A DNA stretch of 40,162 bases from a virus. The DNA lies in the IMG/VR virus record IMGVR_UViG_3300045988_095739, positions 1 to 40,162 of that record. One strand, 5' to 3'. The notes under the pieces are model-generated. The model worked only from the letters and a program-made list of their open reading frames with translations. It did no database searches and was not told the DNA's origin. The position numbers were made by a program, and so were the translations under genes. Position 1 is the stretch's first letter; each line of letters begins with the position of its first letter. Shown one piece after another: positions 123 through 21,441 of this stretch.

Positions 123-3100
123 TTACGTCGTAAACGTCGTACCATCCGCTCGTGTCACTGTAATATTCTGATTGTACGAACGCATCTTCTCATGAATCTT
201 AGTCAGTTCTTCTTCGCTCGGCGTGTAGTCACCGTCGACACCAAGTAGTTTATCAGCCGCTTCTATTTCTTCAGCAGTGATAACGCGAACATTCGGATCA
301 GACAGTTCCTTGCCGCTTTTATCTACAAACGCAATGTCGACGTCAACGATACCATTTTCGTCCGGTCTGCTCATGCCTTTAATTATATAATCCTGACCGC
401 GCCCAAGCAATATCTCTTTCTCATACGGATATTCAGAGCGCTCAAGCAATATGGCGTTTACATCAAGTCCATGATAACCTTGAGGCACTTTCACCCGCAA
501 CAAGTATTTATACGGGTCGCTTGCACCGAACGCAAAACTTCGTCCAACGATATTATCGCGACTCATCGATAAAAAGCCCTTGTCATTGAACGTATCACCA
601 ATGGCCAGTTGATTTTTCAAACCAAAACCGCGATAGAGTATAGTGTCATTACCGAGCGCAGACTTTGCAATCATCTTATCTAACCGTTTCACTGCCTCAG
701 TCGCATGCGAACTAATAGCAGTTCCGGTTCGGAGGTGTTCATTTATCTCCTTGTAGTAAATCCCCTGGTACATCAATAAGGCTTCAGTGTCGACTTTAGT
801 AACACCTTTCGCTAGTACGCCAGTATCAATCAGCTCCTGCTTGCGCGTTGTTTTGAGATGCTCTACCTTGTCAGCAAGCTCTTCGTTCTTCATGCCGGTG
901 ACTTCAGGTAGCTTATAATCGTCCGACATCTTACGTATCATCACCCATATACAACGGCAGTTGAAGTGCAATGGCGGCTGCCACTTCGTCGTTTTGCGCT
1001 CTTCGGGAGTGACAATACTTCCATCCAGCGCGCGGCAGGTCGAGCAGGTTTTGCCATCTAGTAATGCAGAGTATTCGTACAGGTCGCCATTCTTCTCAAT
1101 CGACGTAAACACGTCATTCCGGCCATTATTGATACCTCGCCCCACAATAGCGCTTGCTGTTGGCTTCAGTATGCTTGCCGCCCAGGCGAGCAATGCTAAT
1201 TCAAGCGCTTCTAGGAATATATCAGTCACAGTAGTTATTTCGTCCGCTAGGTGTGTTGGTTGCTTCAATCGCTGTTCGGCAATAATACTCCGTATATCAT
1301 CCTGCTGCTTCGTAATGACGAAGTCTGTCATTTCACGGATTGTAGCCATAGCTTCGCGGCTTGTAGCCGGTGCTGGCACGTTATGCTCGTCTGCCGCACC
1401 GTTCTTAGCGTAGTTGTAGGCGTTACGGATTGTTGAGTTAACGAGTTTAGCGTACTCAGTTGGCAATTCGACGACTATATCCTTTGCACTCTTTGTAGCC
1501 ATGTCGCCTGCTACTAGCTGCTTGAGGAAGTCCGTCATGATAGGTTCGGCGGCAGTTACGAAGTTATCCTCCAACGAATCCATCTTGGCATTGATATCTT
1601 CGAACTTTACGTTCTGTTCGGCAGGCGTGAGCGGTCTCCACCACTTCATTTCGGTGTCGCTTAGAAATTTACCGGCATTACTGCCAGAATCCTCCTTATC
1701 GTCGCCAGACTCTTTATCTCCGTAATTAATGCCCACAGAAGGCACGCGCATGCCGCCTATAGCCTCGCGCAGCGAGCGAACCCACTTCTGAACAGTCTCA
1801 GGGTCGTTTTTTACGTAGGCAAGCGTTACGTGCGGCGTGTATGTTCCAAAGGTGTTCACATGCGGCAATAGCCCGAGGCGTTCATGCGCTTCTGTCAGTC
1901 GACCATCATATACACGAGCGATAATCGGCACAGACTCCGCACCAGGTTCTACCGGGAACGAATCAATATCATCAAGCGCTACACTGTCGCAGCGCCACCC
2001 GCTCAAAACTGTATCGACTTCTGTTTTTATCGCGTTGCCATTCTGTAGTAAGCCGAACAACAATGATACATGAGGTTGTACCTCTGCTACCGCGCCCATC
2101 GTATGCCCGCCCGGCTTTGCTTGCACTAGGTCAGCTGCGCCATTCTCTACATGCCGTACGACATCAAACGGCTGCAGGTCTAACATAATACAGCCGAGTT
2201 TATCTTCGTCGACACCCAGGTTATCGTGTAGACCGGGAAAATCTCGCGCGCTGATTTCAGACAATTCCTTGCTGTCTTTCAATTTCTTTACATCCGCCTC
2301 ATCAATGTCAGCATTTTGCTCAGGTTTCTTTACATCTGCTTCACTATTCTCTTCGTTGTCAGCCGCAGCCTCCTCTTTCTTAGCTTCTTTCGCTTCGCGC
2401 TTCTCACGTTCCTTGCGAACCTGCTCTAGGTCGATATCAAGGCGGTTAGCAGCTTGCTCTTCAATACTCTTTATCATGTCGTCGCTAATGTGGTCTTTTT
2501 CTACAAGCTTCATGAATGCCTCCCACATTGTTTCGACAACATCGCTCGTGATATCGTCGTATCTAAACTCAGGGTAATGCGGCGTAGCGAAGTTCAAGTC
2601 GATTAAGTCGGCGATAATGAACTGATTGATATGCTCTTCGATTTTCGTCATGAATGCCTTAAGCGACATCATCATTGCATCTTTGAGGTTGTCGCTTAGC
2701 GCATACGAGCCGGTATTGCTTTTTCCTTGCGAGCTCATCAGCATAAACGTAGCCAGAAATGCACGAGCCATCTCAGAGTTCTGCCGTTCGATAGACTGGT
2801 GCGGGTCGCGACCATTCTGCGTAATCTCTTTCACGTCATAGCCATACGGTATTGAGGCAACAGAATTACGTTCGCCGAGTTTTGATAGTGCCCTGAGAAC
2901 CTTGCTTACGAGAGCGCCGCCCTTAACGCTCTCATCGCTTGCGAGTGCGTTGTCGCCTTTACGAATGAGCACTTTCGGTTTAATAGCGTCAGCCTGTAAT
3001 GCAATACTATCAAGGTATTCTAGCTTATGCTTCTTCTCATACGGACGCCGCAATGACCGCAGTGCACTTCGACCATACAAATAGTCGCGTGACTTGTTGT

Positions 3101-3677
3101 GCGTAAATAAGAATGTCTTATACGCCGGTAGAATCACATCAACCGTTCTCTCGCCATATCCCACGACTTGCCGTGCACCGCCATAGCCACCAGCCTCGTC
3201 GCGGATTAGCGTAATGCCAATACTATCGCGATGAGCAAGCTTCTTCAGTACATATTTACCGTTTTCGATTTTGTAGACTTTCTCCCACAACTGGAAACCA
3301 TCGACGATTGATAGCATAAGCTCGTCTTGAAATAGCGTGAATGGCGACTCCATACCGCCTTTGTATGGCGGTTCAAATAGGTTGGTACGGACAAAGTTCG
3401 CCTGCTCCTCGCTTGCATCATCCTTACTCGCGTCAATACGATAGGTAGCGGCGATAATCGGCAGCGTGAATACATTGAATAGCGCTTCGACTGTCGGGTC
3501 TCTGTCTACCATCTCGCGGTACTGCTTGATTGTCACCTTATCGCTGCGCAGCTCCTCATGTTCATAGCTACTGAATATAACTTCGCCGGCAACACCAACT
3601 TCACGCGACAATTCCTTGGTTGATTGTACGTTTTTATTCTTTATGCCAAATAACTTCATGTCTATGTTTCCAATCAA
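123..3677 (-). CDS. Portal protein fused to MuF-like head morphogenesis domain and C-terminal ADP-ribosyltransferase toxin domain (1184 aa); probable true start ATG at 3659
   Basis: The N-terminal ~420 aa is portal-like, consistent with the Mu-type head module. The central region carries the MuF/SPP1 gp7 signature LLDGKTCSTCRALDGS...PPLHFNCRCIWV. The C-terminal ~200 aa has the R-S-E ADP-ribosyltransferase motifs YRGFG, GFLSMS (STS-like) and EKEILL (ExE ARTT loop), resembling VIP2/iota-like toxins. The track ORF starts at TTG 3677; ATG at 3659 fits MKLFGIKNK. Confidence 0.8.
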   Translation of the reverse strand: MIGNIDMKLFGIKNKNVQSTKELSREVGVAGEVIFSSYEHEELRSDKVTIKQYREMVDRDPTVEALFNVFTLPIIAATYRIDASKDDASEEQANFVRTNLFEPPYKGGMESPFTLFQDELMLSIVDGFQLWEKVYKIENGKYVLKKLAHRDSIGITLIRDEAGGYGGARQVVGYGERTVDVILPAYKTFLFTHNKSRDYLYGRSALRSLRRPYEKKHKLEYLDSIALQADAIKPKVLIRKGDNALASDESVKGGALVSKVLRALSKLGERNSVASIPYGYDVKEITQNGRDPHQSIERQNSEMARAFLATFMLMSSQGKSNTGSYALSDNLKDAMMMSLKAFMTKIEEHINQFIIADLIDLNFATPHYPEFRYDDITSDVVETMWEAFMKLVEKDHISDDMIKSIEEQAANRLDIDLEQVRKEREKREAKEAKKEEAAADNEENSEADVKKPEQNADIDEADVKKLKDSKELSEISARDFPGLHDNLGVDEDKLGCIMLDLQPFDVVRHVENGAADLVQAKPGGHTMGAVAEVQPHVSLLFGLLQNGNAIKTEVDTVLSGWRCDSVALDDIDSFPVEPGAESVPIIARVYDGRLTEAHERLGLLPHVNTFGTYTPHVTLAYVKNDPETVQKWVRSLREAIGGMRVPSVGINYGDKESGDDKEDSGSNAGKFLSDTEMKWWRPLTPAEQNVKFEDINAKMDSLEDNFVTAAEPIMTDFLKQLVAGDMATKSAKDIVVELPTEYAKLVNSTIRNAYNYAKNGAADEHNVPAPATSREAMATIREMTDFVITKQQDDIRSIIAEQRLKQPTHLADEITTVTDIFLEALELALLAWAASILKPTASAIVGRGINNGRNDVFTSIEKNGDLYEYSALLDGKTCSTCRALDGSIVTPEERKTTKWQPPLHFNCRCIWVMIRKMSDDYKLPEVTGMKNEELADKVEHLKTTRKQELIDTGVLAKGVTKVDTEALLMYQGIYYKEINEHLRTGTAISSHATEAVKRLDKMIAKSALGNDTILYRGFGLKNQLAIGDTFNDKGFLSMSRDNIVGRSFAFGASDPYKYLLRVKVPQGYHGLDVNAILLERSEYPYEKEILLGRGQDYIIKGMSRPDENGIVDVDIAFVDKSGKELSDPNVRVITAEEIEAADKLLGVDGDYTPSEEELTKIHEKMRSYNQNITVTRADGTTFTT

Positions 3678-12769: not shown

Positions 12770-12955
12770 TTATTTTGATTGTTCTTTCGCGGTAAGCTTG
12801 CCGAGATGCGCCCAGGCACTCGTCGAATGGTTGAATAACTTGCTTTCTTTCAGCCATCCGCCGGCGAAAGCCTTGCGGCATACGTACCACTTACCGTCTT
12901 TGTTTTTCTTAATGGTGCGCACGGTCGTAAGCGACCTACGAAATACACTCTTCAT
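12770..12955 (-). CDS. Hypothetical small basic protein (61 aa)
   Basis: Open frame directly downstream of the 321-aa gene. Confidence 0.4.
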   Translation of the reverse strand: MKSVFRRSLTTVRTIKKNKDGKWYVCRKAFAGGWLKESKLFNHSTSAWAHLGKLTAKEQSK

Positions 12956-13901
12956 TGCTTTTTATCTCCAAGGGCTTTTTGCTTTTTACCAAGTAATGGT
13001 TGCCCGTCTCACTACTCAGATAGTTATCATTTACGATATCTAGGAACTTATTCGCATCTTTCGTGTCGAACAAAATGATATTGCCTTTGTCGTCTGTCAT
13101 TAACTCAATGGCCATATTGTCGGCGATATCGAGGACAGTCTCCTGGCTCGGCAGACTCTCAGTGTTAACTTCGAGCAGGCGCTTTAGTGTCGACTTGCTT
13201 TCGCGCGCCATTACGGCGAAATCATTAAACATATTCGGTAGTATCAAGCTATACCGATTACTAATTGCCTCGCCTATTTCATCAGACGTGCGAATATCCT
13301 GAATGTTATAGTCGAATGCTTTCGCGAACTTTGACTGGTCGAATATGAATATTTCGCCGCCAACTATCAGCATTTGATTATCCATCGGCATATTAACTGT
13401 CACGTCAGCTAAGTGAGACTCTGCATTGCCACCATCAAAATCCCACACATGACCCACAGAAATCGACGCAGACGGTGGTAAATACTTCGCGACGTAGAAC
13501 GATACGTTTTTATCGTCCGGATGCGTGTAGTGCGCTACAATTCCTTTCATGCGCTTGAATTCATGGTTGTGCGTCGAAAATTCAAAGATACCGGCACGAT
13601 CCTCTTCAATTTGCCGAACCAGATATCTCACGCGATCGACATCGCTGAGAGGCAGATACGGTAATTGCTTAGAGTCTCGTTTATCGTAATCAACCAGGTT
13701 GACGACATTCACGCCAATCGCCGCATCAGTCTGTATCTCGTTGATTATTCCATACAGGAACATCATCGGTAGTTCAATCTCTAATGCGGGCGATACGCGT
13801 AAACTATATAGCACAGCGTTCTTATTGAAGAGAAACAGTTCGCACTGCAGCCCTTTTTTCATGCTGTCCGCTTGGTTCGCCCATAAGAATATATCTGTCA
13901 T
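12936..13901 (-). CDS. Hypothetical protein (321 aa), accessory/possible defence or anti-defence
   Basis: Long ORF with no recognisable catalytic motif. It is translationally coupled to a 40-aa single-TM peptide gene upstream. Confidence 0.6.
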   Translation of the reverse strand: MTDIFLWANQADSMKKGLQCELFLFNKNAVLYSLRVSPALEIELPMMFLYGIINEIQTDAAIGVNVVNLVDYDKRDSKQLPYLPLSDVDRVRYLVRQIEEDRAGIFEFSTHNHEFKRMKGIVAHYTHPDDKNVSFYVAKYLPPSASISVGHVWDFDGGNAESHLADVTVNMPMDNQMLIVGGEIFIFDQSKFAKAFDYNIQDIRTSDEIGEAISNRYSLILPNMFNDFAVMARESKSTLKRLLEVNTESLPSQETVLDIADNMAIELMTDDKGNIILFDTKDANKFLDIVNDNYLSSETGNHYLVKSKKPLEIKSNEECIS

Positions 13902-13905
13902 ATAG

Positions 13906-14028
13906 CTAAATTCCCAGTATCCAGCCTAATAGCCGCAACAACCCCTCAACTACTACCAGCCCGATAGCAATAACAACTGCCATTGCAATGATTTCACCTA
14001 TTTTCTCCGACGGGTTTTTATCTGCCAT
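13906..14028 (-). CDS. Small single-TM peptide (40 aa)
   Basis: AGGAGAATAACT-ATG gives MADKNPSEKIGEIIAMAVVIAIGLVVVEGLLRLLGWILGI. The stop lies 5 nt before the start of the 321-aa gene. Confidence 0.45.
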   Translation of the reverse strand: MADKNPSEKIGEIIAMAVVIAIGLVVVEGLLRLLGWILGI

Positions 14029-14054
14029 AGTTATTCTCCTTAAATTATTGTTAT

Positions 14055-14189
14055 TTACCTGCCAAGCGCTCTGTCCAGAAATCCGTAATCAGTTAGATTA
14101 TCGAGCTTCTCAATAAGCACTCTGCGTTGCTCTCTAGCGAGCTGTATGCGCTTCATAATGTCGCGCAATCGCTGTAGCATTTTCTTCAT
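14055..14189 (-). CDS. Small hypothetical protein (44 aa)
   Basis: MKKMLQRLRDIMKRIQLAREQRRVLIEKLDNLTDYGFLDRALGR. Moderate RBS. Immediately downstream of the MITE-like hairpin element. Confidence 0.3.
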   Translation of the reverse strand: MKKMLQRLRDIMKRIQLAREQRRVLIEKLDNLTDYGFLDRALGR

Positions 14190-14211
14190 ATTACTTACCT
14201 TTCTTTGCTTG

Positions 14212-14350
14212 TTAGCCGCTCTTGCGGGCTGGTGGATAAATCTACCGCAACATAGGGTGTCACGGGGACGGAGTTATGCAAGGTGCCAAGCATCTTTTAG
14301 GTTGTTCCGTCCTACAACGTAGTCGCCCACCAGCCCGCAAGAGCGGCTAA
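14212..14350. repeat. 139-bp element with 24-bp perfect terminal inverted repeats (TTAGCCGCTCTTGCGGGCTGGTGG ... CCACCAGCCCGCAAGAGCGGCTAA) and an internally structured 91-nt core; MITE-like or structured RNA
   Basis: Direct reading of 14212-14235 against 14327-14350. The core contains a further 7-bp stem, GGACGGA/TCCGTCC. Confidence 0.6.
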
Positions 14351-14355
14351 TTATC

Positions 14356-14661
14356 TTACGCCCGCCACCCCCTTTCGTTTCGTAAATCCTGCGCTGCTGC
14401 CATTCGCTCATCCATTGCTTCTACCTCTTCCCGCCGGCGCTGCTCTGCTATGTTAATCAGCGCTTCATTTATGTCGATGTTATTTAAGGTGATTGCGTCG
14501 TAGAACCAGTCGCCGAGCGATAGTGCTTCGCAAAACTGTCGCGCAGCATCTTCTGAATCTTCAGGTAAATGGTCTACAAGCTCGCCAATGTTTGCCGACG
14601 AATGCTCAGCAAGCACTTGCTCATCGATAAACGTTGTGATGGATTTTGTGTCGGCGTTCAT
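14356..14661 (-). CDS. Hypothetical acidic protein (101 aa)
   Basis: ORF in an operon with the neighbouring early genes. Confidence 0.5.
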   Translation of the reverse strand: MNADTKSITTFIDEQVLAEHSSANIGELVDHLPEDSEDAARQFCEALSLGDWFYDAITLNNIDINEALINIAEQRRREEVEAMDERMAAAQDLRNERGWRA

Positions 14662-14897
14662 CGTCTCTCCTTGTCATATTCATCGACTCGGTATACATGA
14701 TCCGGTAAACGTCCGTTCTGTTGCAGAAACCTCTCAATTTCCTCGTCATTTATCGTCACGATGGTTGTCGTTTCGACGGTAAATATCTTGTATCTACCGT
14801 TGTTGAAACGTTGACGCTTCTCAGTGTCGATAATGTATTTTCGCGAGCCTTTTTGGATTATCTTTTGGTCGTTCATATTCCTCCTTTCTCCTAGCAA
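14658..14897 (-). CDS. Hypothetical protein (79 aa)
   Basis: ORF overlapping the stop of the nuclease-FtsK gene by a few nt. Confidence 0.5.
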   Translation of the reverse strand: MLGERRNMNDQKIIQKGSRKYIIDTEKRQRFNNGRYKIFTVETTTIVTINDEEIERFLQQNGRLPDHVYRVDEYDKERR

Positions 14898-16927
14898 TAC
14901 AATCCCTGCAATCGCTCCAGATTCTTCGAGCGCGGATTTTGGTACAACATGTCGCCATAGCCGGTTAATTGCTCTGCGCCATCCTCGTCCAGAATGATTC
15001 GGCTATTCATCGAGTTCGTTACGCTGAACGCAATCTTTGTCGGGAAGTTGGCTTTAATTAAGCCAGTCACGACCTCACGGCTTGGACGCTGTGTTGCGAT
15101 AATTAAGTGAATACCAACAGCACGCGCTTTCTGGGCGAGCCGTACGATTGATTCTTCGCAGCTTGGCGGCATAGTATCTTCTATCGTCCGCTTCAATGCT
15201 TCCTTGGTGATTTTCACCGTCAAAGTGCCAGTTTTGCTGTCTCCCAGCAGTTCCGTCAGCTCCTGGTTGAATACCTTGATATCAAGCGTTTTAATGCTCG
15301 GCGACGTATCGGTCATGATGAGGTCGGCGAACTCGTCGATAATCGCAACGATACGCGGCATATCATCGCCTTTGTAATCGTCGATTTTACGAACACCTGC
15401 GTCGCGCAACTTTGCGTAACGCGCATTCATCGTGGCAACTAGATCGTCAAGAGCATACGCAGCTGTTTCAGCTTCAGTTACAACCGGCCGCAGTAGATGC
15501 TTGTCGCTTTCGTAACCGGCAAATTCTACCTGTTTTGGGTCGATAAGCAACAGTTTTAGCTTGTCGCTATCCAATTGCTTTGTGAGCACTTGCAGTATCA
15601 CGTTTAGCATGACCGATTTACCCGAGCCAGTTTGTCCGGCCACCAGCAAATGAGGCATCTCCGTAACGTCACCGTAGTGAACTTCGCCAAAGATATCTTC
15701 GCCGATCGGAATACTCATCGTGCCTGGTTTCAGGTGTCTTTCCTCCAGGTCGATTTTCCGTCGTTCTGGATTTGGCACTTCGATGCCAACCAGGTTCGTG
15801 CCAGGGATTGGCGCGATGATTCGTACAGACTCGGCTTTGAGTGCAATAGCAATGTCATCGTGTTTTTTCGCGATAGCATTCATTGCGACACCACGGTTTG
15901 GTCGCATTGTGTAGCGAATAACGGACGCCCCTTTGTATGTTTCGCCCATGATTCCGCCATAGCCAAACTCTGTGAACTTCCGCAGTATCAACTCTTCAGG
16001 AGTACCGCTATCTTCACCAACATCGACTGTCACATTGCGCGGTGCGAACTTCTCAACAGCGTTTACCTTGCGACGGATTTTCGTCGCATCAAAACCCTCT
16101 TCCATGTTCGAAACCAGTTGCATTGACTCAATACCGTTGATGTAATCGCTTGGGTTCGGGAAGAACTTTGCGTTGTCGTCGTTCACGTATGAGAACACGT
16201 TCGTGATGATTTTCTGCGCAACCGGCGCAAACTCCAGTAGCGATTGCCTGTCGTACTCAAAACCTCGCACCTGCGGCGAACCATCGCGGTTCTTGCTTTT
16301 CTTCACTTCTAGGAACTCGACAGATTCTACTTGCTTATCATAATCAGCTTCAGCGAGCACTAGGTAAATGTAGCCCTGTAGCAGATACTTGTAGTTCTCA
16401 ACATACTCAGGATCAAGCGGGTCGTTTGTTGGCGACGAGTAGGCGAACACTGTTTTGAAGTCTTTCACCTTGATCGTGTTATCCGAACTGCCTGCAGCGA
16501 TGATGTCAGATACCCCTACCATCGGTACGCCGTTTACTGCGTGCTCCATTCGCTTCTCAGTCGCCAGCACATCCATCGGACGCGCCTCTTCAAACCAAAC
16601 GTTTACTGTCGCAGTGTATTCCTCAATCATCTTTTCGCGACTGCCAGTCTTGCCGTAATCAATCTCGTAATCGCTCGTATCATTGATAGCCTCTAATCCA
16701 GCAGCAACTGCGTCGTTGATATTACCGCCATCTTCGCTGTAGTACGTTTCCATCGCCTTGTGGAACGCTGTGCCGACGACCATAGCCGGCGACTTCGCAT
16801 TATCGAACACTTTCGCGATATAACGCTTCTGAAACTCAACCTGGTTGCGTAGAAACGTAATGATTGCCGAGTAGCTTAAATGGTCAACCCTCGCCATGTC
16901 GCATCTCCTCGTCCGGATCGGCATCAA
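14891..16927 (-). CDS. Fusion of an N-terminal PD-(D/E)xK (RecB/Cas4/YqaJ-like) nuclease and a C-terminal FtsK/SpoIIIE-family ATPase (678 aa)
   Basis: N-terminal nuclease motifs GVSDIIAAG, IKVKDFKT and QGYIYL. C-terminal Walker A GQTGSGKS, Walker B IIDEFADL, and the FtsK-type IIATQRPS motif. Confidence 0.8.
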   Translation of the reverse strand: MMPIRTRRCDMARVDHLSYSAIITFLRNQVEFQKRYIAKVFDNAKSPAMVVGTAFHKAMETYYSEDGGNINDAVAAGLEAINDTSDYEIDYGKTGSREKMIEEYTATVNVWFEEARPMDVLATEKRMEHAVNGVPMVGVSDIIAAGSSDNTIKVKDFKTVFAYSSPTNDPLDPEYVENYKYLLQGYIYLVLAEADYDKQVESVEFLEVKKSKNRDGSPQVRGFEYDRQSLLEFAPVAQKIITNVFSYVNDDNAKFFPNPSDYINGIESMQLVSNMEEGFDATKIRRKVNAVEKFAPRNVTVDVGEDSGTPEELILRKFTEFGYGGIMGETYKGASVIRYTMRPNRGVAMNAIAKKHDDIAIALKAESVRIIAPIPGTNLVGIEVPNPERRKIDLEERHLKPGTMSIPIGEDIFGEVHYGDVTEMPHLLVAGQTGSGKSVMLNVILQVLTKQLDSDKLKLLLIDPKQVEFAGYESDKHLLRPVVTEAETAAYALDDLVATMNARYAKLRDAGVRKIDDYKGDDMPRIVAIIDEFADLIMTDTSPSIKTLDIKVFNQELTELLGDSKTGTLTVKITKEALKRTIEDTMPPSCEESIVRLAQKARAVGIHLIIATQRPSREVVTGLIKANFPTKIAFSVTNSMNSRIILDEDGAEQLTGYGDMLYQNPRSKNLERLQGLYC

Positions 16928-17600
16928 TCACCTTGTCGTTAGCGATTTCCTCTTCGATGTACAAGCCACTGATATCAAATCCTTGGCGGATTGCGTTTGC
17001 TTCAGCACACTTGGTCAACATCATGCGAGGTCTACTGCGCCACATGCTATTCAGATCTCCGTTTTTTTTTCGACGAGCAAACTCGTCGAAATATGCGGTA
17101 TAGCGCGTGATTTCTACCGGAGAGACCCCCGCCGAGATTGCACTGACTCCGCTACTGAAGATACCGAAGACCGGTACAGTCGCGCTGATGATTTGTGACG
17201 GATCGTCCTTACTGAACTCTAACTCAGCAGCACCAGTATGCGTATAGCGCGGTGTCGTCGATTTGCGTGCCATCTTTCGTAAGCCATGGATTGACACAAT
17301 CGGCGTTAATTCCTCGCGTTGCCGTTCCTTATTCCATACGTACGTTGCGTAGATTTCCTTTTTGAACGGGTTTAGTCCGTATTGATTAGAAATCGCTAGG
17401 AACAATTTCAAGTCTTCCATCGGTCGCGCTTCGCCAGTCTTCGTTAAGCCGAGCATGCTGCGGTGCAATGTCGCAACCATTTTTTCTTTGCTAATTTTCG
17501 TGTTTTCTGAAAACATACCAGACGCGAGCGGCACAACGTCTCGATACATCGTCAACTTTTTCTTTGCGACGGCCACTTTCGCGTCTTTCTCTGTTGTCAT
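16884..17600 (-). CDS. recT: RecT-family single-strand annealing protein
   Basis: KLFLAISNQYGLNPFKKEIYATYV is a RecT/Red-beta-like core. It lies upstream of a nuclease gene, as in RecET/YqaJK modules. Confidence 0.75.
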   Translation of the reverse strand: MTTEKDAKVAVAKKKLTMYRDVVPLASGMFSENTKISKEKMVATLHRSMLGLTKTGEARPMEDLKLFLAISNQYGLNPFKKEIYATYVWNKERQREELTPIVSIHGLRKMARKSTTPRYTHTGAAELEFSKDDPSQIISATVPVFGIFSSGVSAISAGVSPVEITRYTAYFDEFARRKKNGDLNSMWRSRPRMMLTKCAEANAIRQGFDISGLYIEEEIANDKVIDADPDEEMRHGEG

Positions 17601-18917: not shown

Positions 18918-18993
18918 TGGAGCCACGACCGAGGTTTGAACTCGGGACCTACGCCTTACCATGGCGTCGCTCTACCAGCTGAGCTATCGCGGC
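18918..18993 (-). tRNA. tRNA-Thr (anticodon GGT), 76 nt with encoded CCA
   Basis: Reverse complement folds as a cloverleaf: acceptor GCCGCGA/TCGTGGC, D-arm GCTCagctggtaGAGC, anticodon stem ACGCC/GGCGT with loop ATGGTAA, T-arm CCGAGttcaaacCTCGG, then T-CCA. Confidence 0.85.
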
Positions 18994-19274: not shown

Positions 19275-20135
19275 TTATACGCCCGTTGGTGTTTTGAATT
19301 TGTCGTACATCTCTACCAGTCTGCAATCATCTAGCCCGTGCAGATATTTTTCGGTAGTAGCCATGCTTGAATGTCTCATTAACCTCTGTGCTACGTCTAT
19401 CGGTGCTCTATTGACTTGCAGCTCTGTACCAAACGAATGACGGAGCGAGTGCGGATAAAAGCCGTCCAGTCCCGCCTTGTCAAAAGCTCTTTTCATTCGA
19501 TACCTCAGCTCGTCTACGCTGTACGGTCTACCGTCGTTGTATTTGGGCGACGGCCATAGGTAGTCGTTGATTTTTTGCGAGTCAATCCAGCAATCGAGTT
19601 TATCGCGCGTTTCTTGCGACATAAACAGCCGTCCAGCCTTACGACCTTTTCCGATAATGTTCATTTCTCGATCGCTAACATTGCTTAGTCGCAGATTTCG
19701 GAGCTCACTGATTCGCAGGCCAGAATCAAAAGCTAACGATATCAACAGCCACGAAAGCTCATCGGCGTAGTTCTTTGCACGGCCTATCTCCTTGCGAGTA
19801 AAAAACTTGCGACGTGGAGGATCCTCTTCTAGCCGATAGACTCGATTCAGGTTGATAGGGACACTATACCCCTCCTCTTTGAGCCATCGACAAAGACTGA
19901 TGACATGGTTTACTCTGGTATTTACAGTTCTAGCTGCAACCGTCCCAGAGCACAACAGCGACTTCTGCCAGGACTTGAACACTTCGCTAGTGAACTCCCG
20001 CATGTCTTCGATTGCGACCTGTCTAGCAAACTGATTTAATACCGCCCGCTTACTAGACAACGTTTGCCTTGTCATGTTTCGGTTGTATTTGCAGAAATCC
20101 AAATAAGCTTCTATCTGCGAATGAATTGTTTCCAT
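19275..20135 (-). CDS. int: Tyrosine recombinase / phage integrase (XerC/D-like)
   Basis: N-terminal SAM-like domain. Catalytic R...HSLRHSFGT...RLMRHSSMATTEKYLH with the Tyr nucleophile. Confidence 0.9.
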   Translation of the reverse strand: METIHSQIEAYLDFCKYNRNMTRQTLSSKRAVLNQFARQVAIEDMREFTSEVFKSWQKSLLCSGTVAARTVNTRVNHVISLCRWLKEEGYSVPINLNRVYRLEEDPPRRKFFTRKEIGRAKNYADELSWLLISLAFDSGLRISELRNLRLSNVSDREMNIIGKGRKAGRLFMSQETRDKLDCWIDSQKINDYLWPSPKYNDGRPYSVDELRYRMKRAFDKAGLDGFYPHSLRHSFGTELQVNRAPIDVAQRLMRHSSMATTEKYLHGLDDCRLVEMYDKFKTPTGV

Positions 20136-20990: not shown

Positions 20991-21311
20991 ATGATTCAGT
21001 CGCAAGCAGAGGGCTTGAAAATCGTCACTGGCTGGGGACAATTCCGCGGCAGCGGCGGCAATAGTGCTACAGTAGAGGTGCAATTTCCGCATGAGTTCAA
21101 GAATGAAGTTGTGATGGCGATGGTGTCATACAATGGCTTTCATACTGGTACGAAAGCAGAGAAACTTAGTGATTTCACAAACAAAATCGGCACAGGAGTA
21201 GTAGCAGAGTTTTTGGTGCGCGATAAAAAGTCTGGCGTAATTTTACTATCAACGTCTGGCATATTCGGCGGTGCGTGGCATGGTGTGTCATGGATTGTTA
21301 TTGGTCATTAA
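20991..21311 (+). CDS. Hypothetical protein (106 aa); one of only two + strand genes, moron-like
   Basis: It runs opposite to the rest of the genome and is followed by a strong hairpin terminator at 21384-21441. Confidence 0.5.
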   Translation: MIQSQAEGLKIVTGWGQFRGSGGNSATVEVQFPHEFKNEVVMAMVSYNGFHTGTKAEKLSDFTNKIGTGVVAEFLVRDKKSGVILLSTSGIFGGAWHGVSWIVIGH

Positions 21312-21383
21312 ACTCATATTTAGCAGTGAGCGCCGACTAAGTGCTTGCTAGCATACCTGCTTATGTTTATAATAATCAATGAA

Positions 21384-21441
21384 ACGTAAGTCGTCTGGTG
21401 GGTTTATAAGCATTTTCCCCACCAGACGGGCTACGTTTTTT
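21384..21441 (+). terminator. Intrinsic terminator (11-bp perfect stem CGTCTGGTGGG/CCCACCAGACG extendable to ~18 bp, followed by T8)
   Basis: Read directly from the sequence. Confidence 0.65.

Follow-up and report, generated by a model that had tools for sequence, protein, structure and literature searches.

A long-stem, four-way-junction element between early cistrons of a Saccharibacteria phage is a candidate for an uncatalogued structured RNA

The virus record IMGVR_UViG_3300045988_095739 of IMG/VR, analyzed here over its full 40,162 nucleotides (nt) and referred to as the window, contains at positions 14212-14350 an element of 139 base pairs (bp) whose inverted-repeat arms enclose a core of 91 nt. 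We found this element to be present in a single copy at a fixed position and to be under purifying selection; its base pairs covary, and its best fold is formed on the sense strand of the surrounding genes. Judging from these sequence comparisons it is more than a chance palindrome and appears to represent an uncatalogued RNA motif of Saccharibacteria phages. Our leading interpretation, which we put forward tentatively, is a cis-encoded structured non-coding RNA in an early polycistronic transcript, probably acting as a processing or stability element of the RNase III type.

The two arms, 24 nt each and 100% complementary, consist of TTAGCCGCTCTTGCGGGCTGGTGG (14212-14235) and, at 14327-14350, its exact reverse complement, in agreement with the first-pass annotation of this DNA, and the internal pairing GGACGGA/TCCGTCC that it had described within the core was likewise recovered (14266-14272 with 14306-14312). 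This is the sole stem of such size on either strand of the 40-kb window, also with G-U pairs allowed, and a search of the window for a further copy of the arm with up to 3 mismatches returned none, as did dinucleotide shuffles. Folding of a 163-nt region yielded -79 kcal/mol for the minus strand (z = -8.9 against shuffles) and -79.9 kcal/mol for the plus strand (z = -7.8). In the predicted fold a helix P1 of 24-26 bp, about two and a quarter helical turns in length, closes a four-way junction that carries three hairpins, H1 to H3. Within the core, variation is highest in the single-stranded junction segment, with a 2-nt insertion in the relatives L015 and L020. Note that the element had been placed 8 nt after the stop of the upstream gene, while the measured gap between the stop codon of this 101-amino-acid (aa) gene (14356-14358) and P1 is 5 nt. 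The element had further been called GC-rich relative to its flanks. This applies, modestly, to the downstream side (0.54-0.58 versus 0.45), but not to the upstream side, where the GC content is about equal.

The evidence that carries the structure comes from diverged relatives. Homologs of a nearby KwaB-like gene with 55-58% identity led to other phage contigs of ~20-40 kb, and in three of them covariance model R1 matched an element: L040:2616-2756 (66 bits), L045:3279-3417 (58.6 bits) and L048:3555-3710 (39.9 bits). Each is preceded, at a distance of 5-7 nt, by the stop codon of a gene whose product shares 46-50% identity with the 101-aa protein of the window. As evidenced by tblastn, homologs of the 72-aa gene are found upstream of this 100-aa gene in the same three loci, and none are found in L041, L042, L002 or L003. 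The latter four loci, devoid of the 72-aa/100-aa pair, are also devoid of the element, and neither R1 nor a second covariance model, R2, found a homolog in L002, L003, L041, L042 or L049-L051. The gene for a 44/45-aa basic protein that follows the element is kept in L040 and L045 and is absent in L048.

A MAFFT alignment of nine sequences from four lineages, folded with RNAalifold, gave a consensus with a P1 of 24-26 bp, 5 bp in H1, 7 bp in H2 with a large apex, 5-8 bp in H3 and a single-stranded 3' junction. Compensatory double changes were observed in 17 of 41 pairs, distributed over P1 (11/24), H3 (4 of the 5 aligned pairs) and H2 (2/7), where column shuffles gave 6.7 +/- 2.0 and none out of 500 reached 17. 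The proportion of paired cells was 93.5%, compared to 85.1% in shuffles, controls in which the partners were slid contained at most 7 compensatory pairs, and a model-fitted alignment of 14 sequences agreed with this result. The covariation analysis across homologs that the first-pass annotation had suggested thus speaks for a selected structure, and a chance palindrome, unique and without conserved structure in related phages, is contradicted by its conservation in L040, L045 and L048. Sequence conservation has a different focus from pairing. It is concentrated on the top of P1, H1 and the base of H2, where the string CUGGUGG-GCGAC-UAC-GUUGU-AGG is nearly identical in the four lineages; H1 is almost invariant, and the motif ACCUU in the apex of H2 is fully so. 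In the lower part of P1 and in H3 the pairing is conserved, but the sequence is not.

Close relatives were retrieved through the 101-aa protein, which falls into a single cluster at 90% identity with 35 members, and 32 contigs were fetched in this way. All contigs that reach the site, about 30, carry the element in collinear position and in one orientation, and eleven full-length variants can be distinguished besides the window. Nucleotide diversity (pi) is 0.034 for arms and core, 2.5-4 times below that of third codon positions in the flanking genes (0.08-0.14), while the 22-nt spacer just downstream reaches 0.20 and the next intergenic gap 0.10. Arms and core are therefore both under purifying selection. 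Indels of 1 and 2 nt inside the core among close variants exclude a coding function, and a 32-aa open reading frame (ORF) at 14195-14293, considered as a protein-coding mini-gene, was rejected as it is broken by them. The remaining variation is found in predicted loops or is of the wobble type in H3 (C-G to U-G, U-G to U-A, G-U to A-U). Covariation within the window's own lineage is not significant, with 241 of 500 shuffles reaching the same level, so that the diverged lineages were needed.

The perfection of the 24-bp repeat is strain-specific and not conserved, and most relatives have a small mismatch in the middle of the stem. At stem positions 14-15 (14220-14221 and 14341-14342 in the window) a CG/GC polymorphism affects both arms in contigs L008-L039 and gives rise to three haplotypes. 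CG/CG in the window and L009 and GC/GC in the L020-L029 group produce a perfect stem, whereas CG/GC, found in L010-L019, L027 and L030-L036, leaves a 2-nt mismatch. L008 shares its 5' arm with the GC/GC group, and its contig ends before the 3' arm. Compared to its nearest relatives, of the L031 type, the stem of the window differs solely by the dinucleotide that restores complementarity (CG at 3'-strand positions 10-11, where the other close relatives all have GC). Two separate sub-lineages have thus reached perfect pairing via adjacent double changes. This would be expected under selection for pairing, and it also suggests a signature of template-switch correction of a quasi-palindrome or of repeated compensation. 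The element documents such quasi-palindrome "repair" dynamics in natural phage populations.

The two strands are not equivalent as carriers of the fold. On the gene-sense strand, P1 contains 8 G-U cells against 1 internal A-C, and this strand also yields the longer or better stem in L040, L045 and L048. H1 contains two invariant G-U pairs that are formed on the minus, gene-sense strand only, and the G-U pairs of H3 likewise turn into mismatches on the opposite strand. With model R2, sense copies scored 107-167 bits and antisense copies 28-64 bits. These data are most simply explained by an RNA, since the favored strand is the one that is transcribed. Taken jointly, the candidate roles of a structured RNA, an RNase III site or a cis-regulatory RNA named in the first-pass annotation gain support from this combination of an identical site in diverged relatives, compensatory changes and strand-specific wobble pairs.

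A function of the element as single-stranded or cruciform DNA, be it as a priming or replication signal, as a recombination site for RecT, the nuclease-FtsK protein or the integrase, or as a binding site for a dimeric protein, we consider unlikely. The perfect inverted repeat of the window and the recombination genes that adjoin it would fit such a role; the CG/GC swaps look like template-switch mutations, which require a DNA hairpin to form, and hairpins of single-stranded DNA tolerate G-T pairs. However, the asymmetric inner hairpins covary, the transcribed sense strand is favored in every lineage, neither iterons nor an AT-rich tract are present, and L002 and L003 share the genes for RecT and the nuclease-FtsK protein yet do not have the element. 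The arm sequence moreover changes freely between lineages, at 11 of 24 pairs, which speaks against the lower stem as a sequence-specific site for a dimer. A protein-binding palindrome, also proposed in the first-pass annotation, is accordingly unlikely for the arms, whose stem pairs change on both sides while the internal hairpins are asymmetric and the G-U pairs confined to one strand.

Several properties of P1 point to processing by RNase III. The helix has 24-26 bp in all lineages, and in most of them (L015, L031, L010, L045, L048) it contains a mismatch of 1-2 nt at a distance of 13-16 bp from its base; sites for this enzyme are duplexes of ~20 bp or more, often with an internal loop in mid-stem, and P1 corresponds to this description. 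The early recombination and accessory region has the gene layout of one polycistronic transcript with which the element would be read on the minus strand, and its location between same-strand cistrons and the G-U bias of the sense strand both fit a position within a transcript. The Shine-Dalgarno sequence of the downstream gene is free, 8-20 nt past P1. We infer that the element would be transcribed as part of an early polycistronic RNA and may be cleaved by RNase III, with a possible regulatory outcome. In the mechanism we propose, P1 would be recognized by a double-strand-specific ribonuclease, putatively the host RNase III, and cleavage would uncouple the 72-aa and 101-aa cistrons from those for the 44-aa protein, a membrane peptide and the KwaB-like protein, setting the relative stability and expression of upstream versus downstream cistrons. 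The same cut may also liberate the compact core, which would then exist as a separate small RNA and could bind a protein via its conserved junction. A ribosome that terminates at the upstream stop, which in each of the four lineages precedes P1 by 5-7 nt, would unwind the helix at its base, possibly coupling processing to translation.

Four observations weigh against this interpretation. The core folded alone shows a modest gain over shuffles (z = -2.2). Covariation in H1 and H2 is thin, as only four independent lineages are available. Folding of the sense strand as single-stranded DNA would be expected to produce the same covariation and G-T asymmetry and is formally an alternative. Finally, RNase III sites of the classical kind are found several times in a phage genome and have the form of simple hairpins; the one copy per genome of the element, with its sequence-conserved, multi-branched core, suggests a function more specific than cleavage.

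A sequence-conserved junction suggests an additional specific partner, and a regulatory or trans-acting RNA therefore stays the main rival. Here the element would act mainly via its four-way-junction core, with P1 as a mere clamp, either as a cis-regulatory sensor or as a trans-acting small RNA or ribonucleoprotein. In cis it might be a leader of the downstream genes that binds a ligand or protein, or a translational operator for a neighboring small protein; in trans it might be, for example, a decoy against host defense. We consider such a core function, all these options included, possible, if clearly less probable than processing at P1. It would account for the concentration of conservation at the junction, for the invariant ACCUU and for purifying selection that acts on the core as it does on the arms, and it is in line with the strict linkage of the element to the conserved pair of 72-aa and 100-aa genes and with its accessory, defense-like neighborhood that includes a KwaB-like gene. 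On the other hand, no Rfam family, riboswitches and ribozymes included, matches at E values up to 10, the switchable P1 of riboswitches is much shorter than the P1 found here, and an alternative pairing of the terminator/anti-terminator type is not evident. The downstream gene varies by lineage, with the 45-aa gene absent in L048, and the H2 apex could pair over no more than 4-5 bp with the downstream Shine-Dalgarno sequence.

The very stable stem, 5-7 nt past a stop codon and at the point where a conserved gene pair meets a variable accessory region, might also be a transcription stop or attenuator that lacks a U-tract, or a translational insulator, separating two expression modules. We regard this as improbable, since a plain terminator does not need a sequence-conserved, branched core of 91 nt, and the same phage uses a canonical hairpin with T-run as a terminator elsewhere (21382-21438). 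The absence of a T-run behind the stem, correctly noted in the first-pass annotation, extends to all four lineages as the absence of a U-tract, and a terminator scan was empty at the element. On the same grounds an intrinsic, rho-independent terminator was rejected.

Two mobile or switching DNA elements were weighed and are far less probable still. For a miniature inverted-repeat transposable element (MITE) that has landed between two genes of the phage, as had been suggested initially, the size of the element, its terminal inverted repeats, its intergenic location and the lack of an ORF are typical, and the TA at both ends can be read as a target duplication, albeit ambiguously. This possibility is close to refuted. 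The search for copies and empty sites in host and phage genomes proposed by the first-pass annotation was carried out and returned neither multiple copies nor an empty site: there is one copy per genome, the covariance models found none in the host flanks, and collections of phages, plasmids and E. coli, as well as IMG/VR and Joint Genome Institute (JGI) metagenomes, contain no copies beyond the same phage. Among 185,579 GTDB species genomes, one for each species, there was a lone chance 20-mer without a partner arm, in a coding region of Antarcticimicrobium, a high-GC alphaproteobacterium. Absence of the element always goes along with absence of the flanking 72-aa and 100-aa genes; where present, the element holds an orthologous position across lineages with 46-50% protein identity, shows compensatory evolution and has low diversity. 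A transposase or partner element was not found in any fetched locus, where no systematic search for insertion sequence ends was made.

An invertible DNA switch, i.e. a promoter-carrying inverton flipped by a site-specific recombinase, is equally remote. Inverted repeats of 24 bp around ~90 bp upstream of genes and a tyrosine recombinase encoded 5 kb away would fit it, but the orientation of the core is constant in the ~30 spanning contigs and in all four lineages, which excludes an active switch. In addition, a promoter scan revealed no promoter-like site inside the element, and the inner hairpins covary as a single-strand fold.

Further identities were tried and discarded. No match was obtained with Rfam 15 at gathering score, and at E values up to 10 no hit on 13900-14700 overlapped the element; ARAGORN called no tRNA-like gene there. 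An integron attC site would have its end motifs in the reverse order (xTTAGCC...GGCTAAx in the element versus R''(RYYYAAC)...R'(GTTRRRY)), along with extrahelical bases and an integron integrase. The stem of the element is perfect or symmetric, and the sole recombinase among the scanned nearby genes is the ordinary phage-type tyrosine integrase. Both arms end, on their inner side, in the E. coli Chi octamer GCTGGTGG (14228-14235 on the plus and 14327-14334 on the minus strand), which is found at 5 other sites, i.e. 7 times in the window versus 0.7 in shuffles. As 316 other octamers are equally frequent, the top ones with 10-11 copies, and as the host is not an enterobacterium, Chi at the arm ends is probably not meaningful but a coincidence or an effect of codon bias. 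A resemblance to the Cas12a repeat hairpin (CUAC-GUU-GUAG) is not conserved in L040. The ACCUU apex, which in three lineages resembles an anti-Shine-Dalgarno sequence (CACCUC...CCUUU), was considered as a partner for the downstream Shine-Dalgarno sequence, a weak idea given 4-5 bp of inconsistent geometry.

Among established systems, the RNase III signals of phage T7/T3 early mRNA (R0.3, R1.1 and others) and the hairpin of the lambda N leader are, like the element, located between early cistrons and contain a duplex of about two turns. They share with it the lack of a U-tract, the mid-stem mismatch seen in most lineages and the free Shine-Dalgarno sequence of the next gene, and in three lineages the gene following the element encodes a small basic protein, as is N. 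In contrast, T7 sites are simple hairpins of ~60 nt with small apical loops, several per genome, while the stem of the element, of which there is one per genome, encloses a four-way junction of 91 nt whose core is conserved in sequence; boxA and boxB are absent. Transcribed hairpins of bacterial MITEs can also be RNase III substrates, and the Neisseria Correia, ERIC and RUP elements are similar in size (100-150 bp), terminal inverted repeats (~24-26 nt) and intergenic location. The element differs from them in that it is single-copy, non-mobile and orthologous in diverged phages, with compensatory changes in its arms and purifying selection on its core.

Processing stems of 16S and 23S ribosomal RNA (rRNA) and the 23S intervening sequences excised by RNase III also have distant flanks that form a long helix enclosing a structured RNA, and cleavage of the helix frees the enclosed RNA, as it would in the element. 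In our case, however, a small RNA is enclosed inside a protein-coding phage operon. Intervening sequences of this kind in bacteria of the Candidate Phyla Radiation (CPR) are discussed in PMC11270868. Y-RNA-like RNAs (YrlA), also found in phages, likewise have a long stem formed by their ends that closes a cloverleaf-like, multi-branched domain. They are separate genes, whereas the element lies between cistrons and has neither an Rfam match nor a tRNA-like call by ARAGORN, and no Ro/Rsr or RtcB domain was found among the neighboring genes or the gene calls of related loci. Riboswitches with a four-way junction such as SAM-I also present a conserved junction closed by a P1 helix upstream of a gene. 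Their P1 has 4-8 bp instead of 24-26 bp, and the element shows no evident competing expression platform, precedes genes that are non-metabolic and matches no such family.

The coordinates of the element and its neighbors are summarized in Table 1. All neighboring genes are on the minus strand, and the order of transcription is RecT, nuclease-FtsK, 72-aa, 101-aa, element, 44-aa, 40-aa and KwaB-like.

Table 1. Structural parts of the element and adjacent genes, with positions in the window
Feature	Position	Strand	Remarks
P1 helix, RNA 5' strand (UUAGCCGCUCUUGCGGGCUGGUGG)	14327-14350	-	Perfect complement of 14212-14235
Hairpin H1 (GCGAC-UAC-GUUGU)	14314-14326	-	5 bp, two of them G-U; minimum free energy and consensus folds
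Hairpin H2 (GGACGGA/UCCGUCC)	14266-14312	-	7-bp stem, 33-nt apical region with invariant ACCUU; from folds
Hairpin H3 (CCGUGACA-CCCUA-UGUUGCGG)	14245-14265	-	Helix kept, sequence different in every lineage
Single-stranded junction segment (UAGAUUUAU)	14236-14244	-	Between H3 and P1 3' strand; unpaired in all folds
P1 helix, RNA 3' strand (CCACCAGCCCGCAAGAGCGGCUAA)	14212-14235	-	Complement of 14327-14350
RecT	16884-17600	-	Upstream neighbor
PD-(D/E)XK nuclease fused to FtsK/SpoIIIE translocase, 678 aa	14891-16927	-	Directly after RecT
72-aa gene	14658-14876	-	Precedes 101-aa gene; co-occurs with the element
101-aa acidic protein	14356-14661	-	Stop 5 nt before P1; homologs directly precede the element in L040, L045 and L048
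44-aa basic protein, motif DYGFLDRAL	14055-14189	-	First gene downstream; Shine-Dalgarno GAAAGG ~10 nt past P1
40-aa hydrophobic single-pass membrane peptide	13906-14028	-	ORF; related peptide in L045; directly before KwaB-like gene
321-aa KwaB-like protein (DUF4868)	12936-13901	-	Pfam PF16162, 2.2e-7; NCBIfam KwaB, 3.3e-8, under curated cut-off

The 101-aa protein has no match in Pfam, PHROG, NCBIfam or PDB sequences, and a look-up of the 40-aa peptide found no record. Three of the four lineages encode, directly behind the element, a basic, helical protein of 44-47 aa that ends in DYGFLDRAL-G (14055-14189 in the window, L040:2783-2926, L045:3441-3584); this protein is a possible RNA-binding partner. 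The 678-aa protein combines an N-terminal PD-(D/E)XK nuclease with the alpha and motor domains of FtsK/SpoIIIE and is an unusual partner for RecT. KwaB-like homologs are present in all loci that bear the element and also in loci that do not. Such genes, related to the Kiwa defense system, regularly occur in the early region of related phages of ~40 kb and also in Saccharibacteria genomes; the gene is split by frameshifts in L020 and L028 and deleted in L025.

The window has no relatives at the DNA level among deposited phages. In integrated copies from metagenomes, the genes of the flanking host DNA cluster with Candidatus Southlakia epibionticum/Saccharimonadaceae and other Saccharibacteria. 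These copies (L010, L011, L015, L016) occur in two host contexts, beside a tRNA-Thr(GGU) or beside ruvX-yceG without a tRNA. The window itself carries a complete tRNA-Thr(GGU) at 18918-18993, between a lysozyme-like gene and the tyrosine integrase (19275-20135), and as L010 and L011 have this tRNA at their prophage junction, this is probably the attP region. From the clustering of the host genes and the prophage that abuts the tRNA found beside the integrase of the window, we assign the latter to a temperate phage of ~40 kb of oral Saccharibacteria (TM7).

Long stems are otherwise absent from the loci examined, with two exceptions. In L049, from a JGI metagenome, a non-coding stretch of 570 nt (2840-3409) behind a homolog of the 100-aa acidic protein with 36% identity contains three long-stem structures in tandem, at 3007-3109, 3118-3273 (27-bp arms) and 3281-3377. 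In L041, a related phage without the 100-aa gene, the early region opens with another such element at 289-482, a 27-bp stem around a branched core of 140 nt (z = -4.4); read on the sense strand, 4 of the stem pairs are G-U. Neither could be aligned to the covariance models, and we therefore claim no homology, although the stems hint at a wider, sequence-diverse family. A bolder proposal, which we hold to be doubtful and somewhat less probable than a core function as such, is that the element is the founding example of an undescribed class of non-coding RNA in phages of Patescibacteria (CPR): a compact four-way-junction RNA that would be excised from an early operon via its ~25-bp helix and act in trans with one of the conserved small proteins next to it, the acidic one of 100 aa or the basic one of 45 aa. 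It might, for instance, be a decoy or regulator where phage and host defense interact around the KwaB-like gene.

Little is known about phages that infect Saccharibacteria and other CPR bacteria, and we found no report of a structured RNA for them. By its covariation, single copy and fixed location the element is a clean candidate for a new RNA family and is suited for inclusion in RNA databases and for direct testing, as Saccharibacteria such as Southlakia epibionticum can now be cultured and manipulated. If it is a signal of the RNase III type, operon-internal RNA processing would control the expression of early and accessory genes in CPR phages. If the core has a function of its own, a new phage ribonucleoprotein or regulatory RNA would reside beside a Kiwa-like gene. 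As a minor observation, the canonical intrinsic terminator of the window on the plus strand (21382-21438), which follows the gene at 20991-21311 and consists of 21-nt arms, a 15-nt loop and a T-run, has a stem top, CTGGTGGG, that resembles the top of P1.

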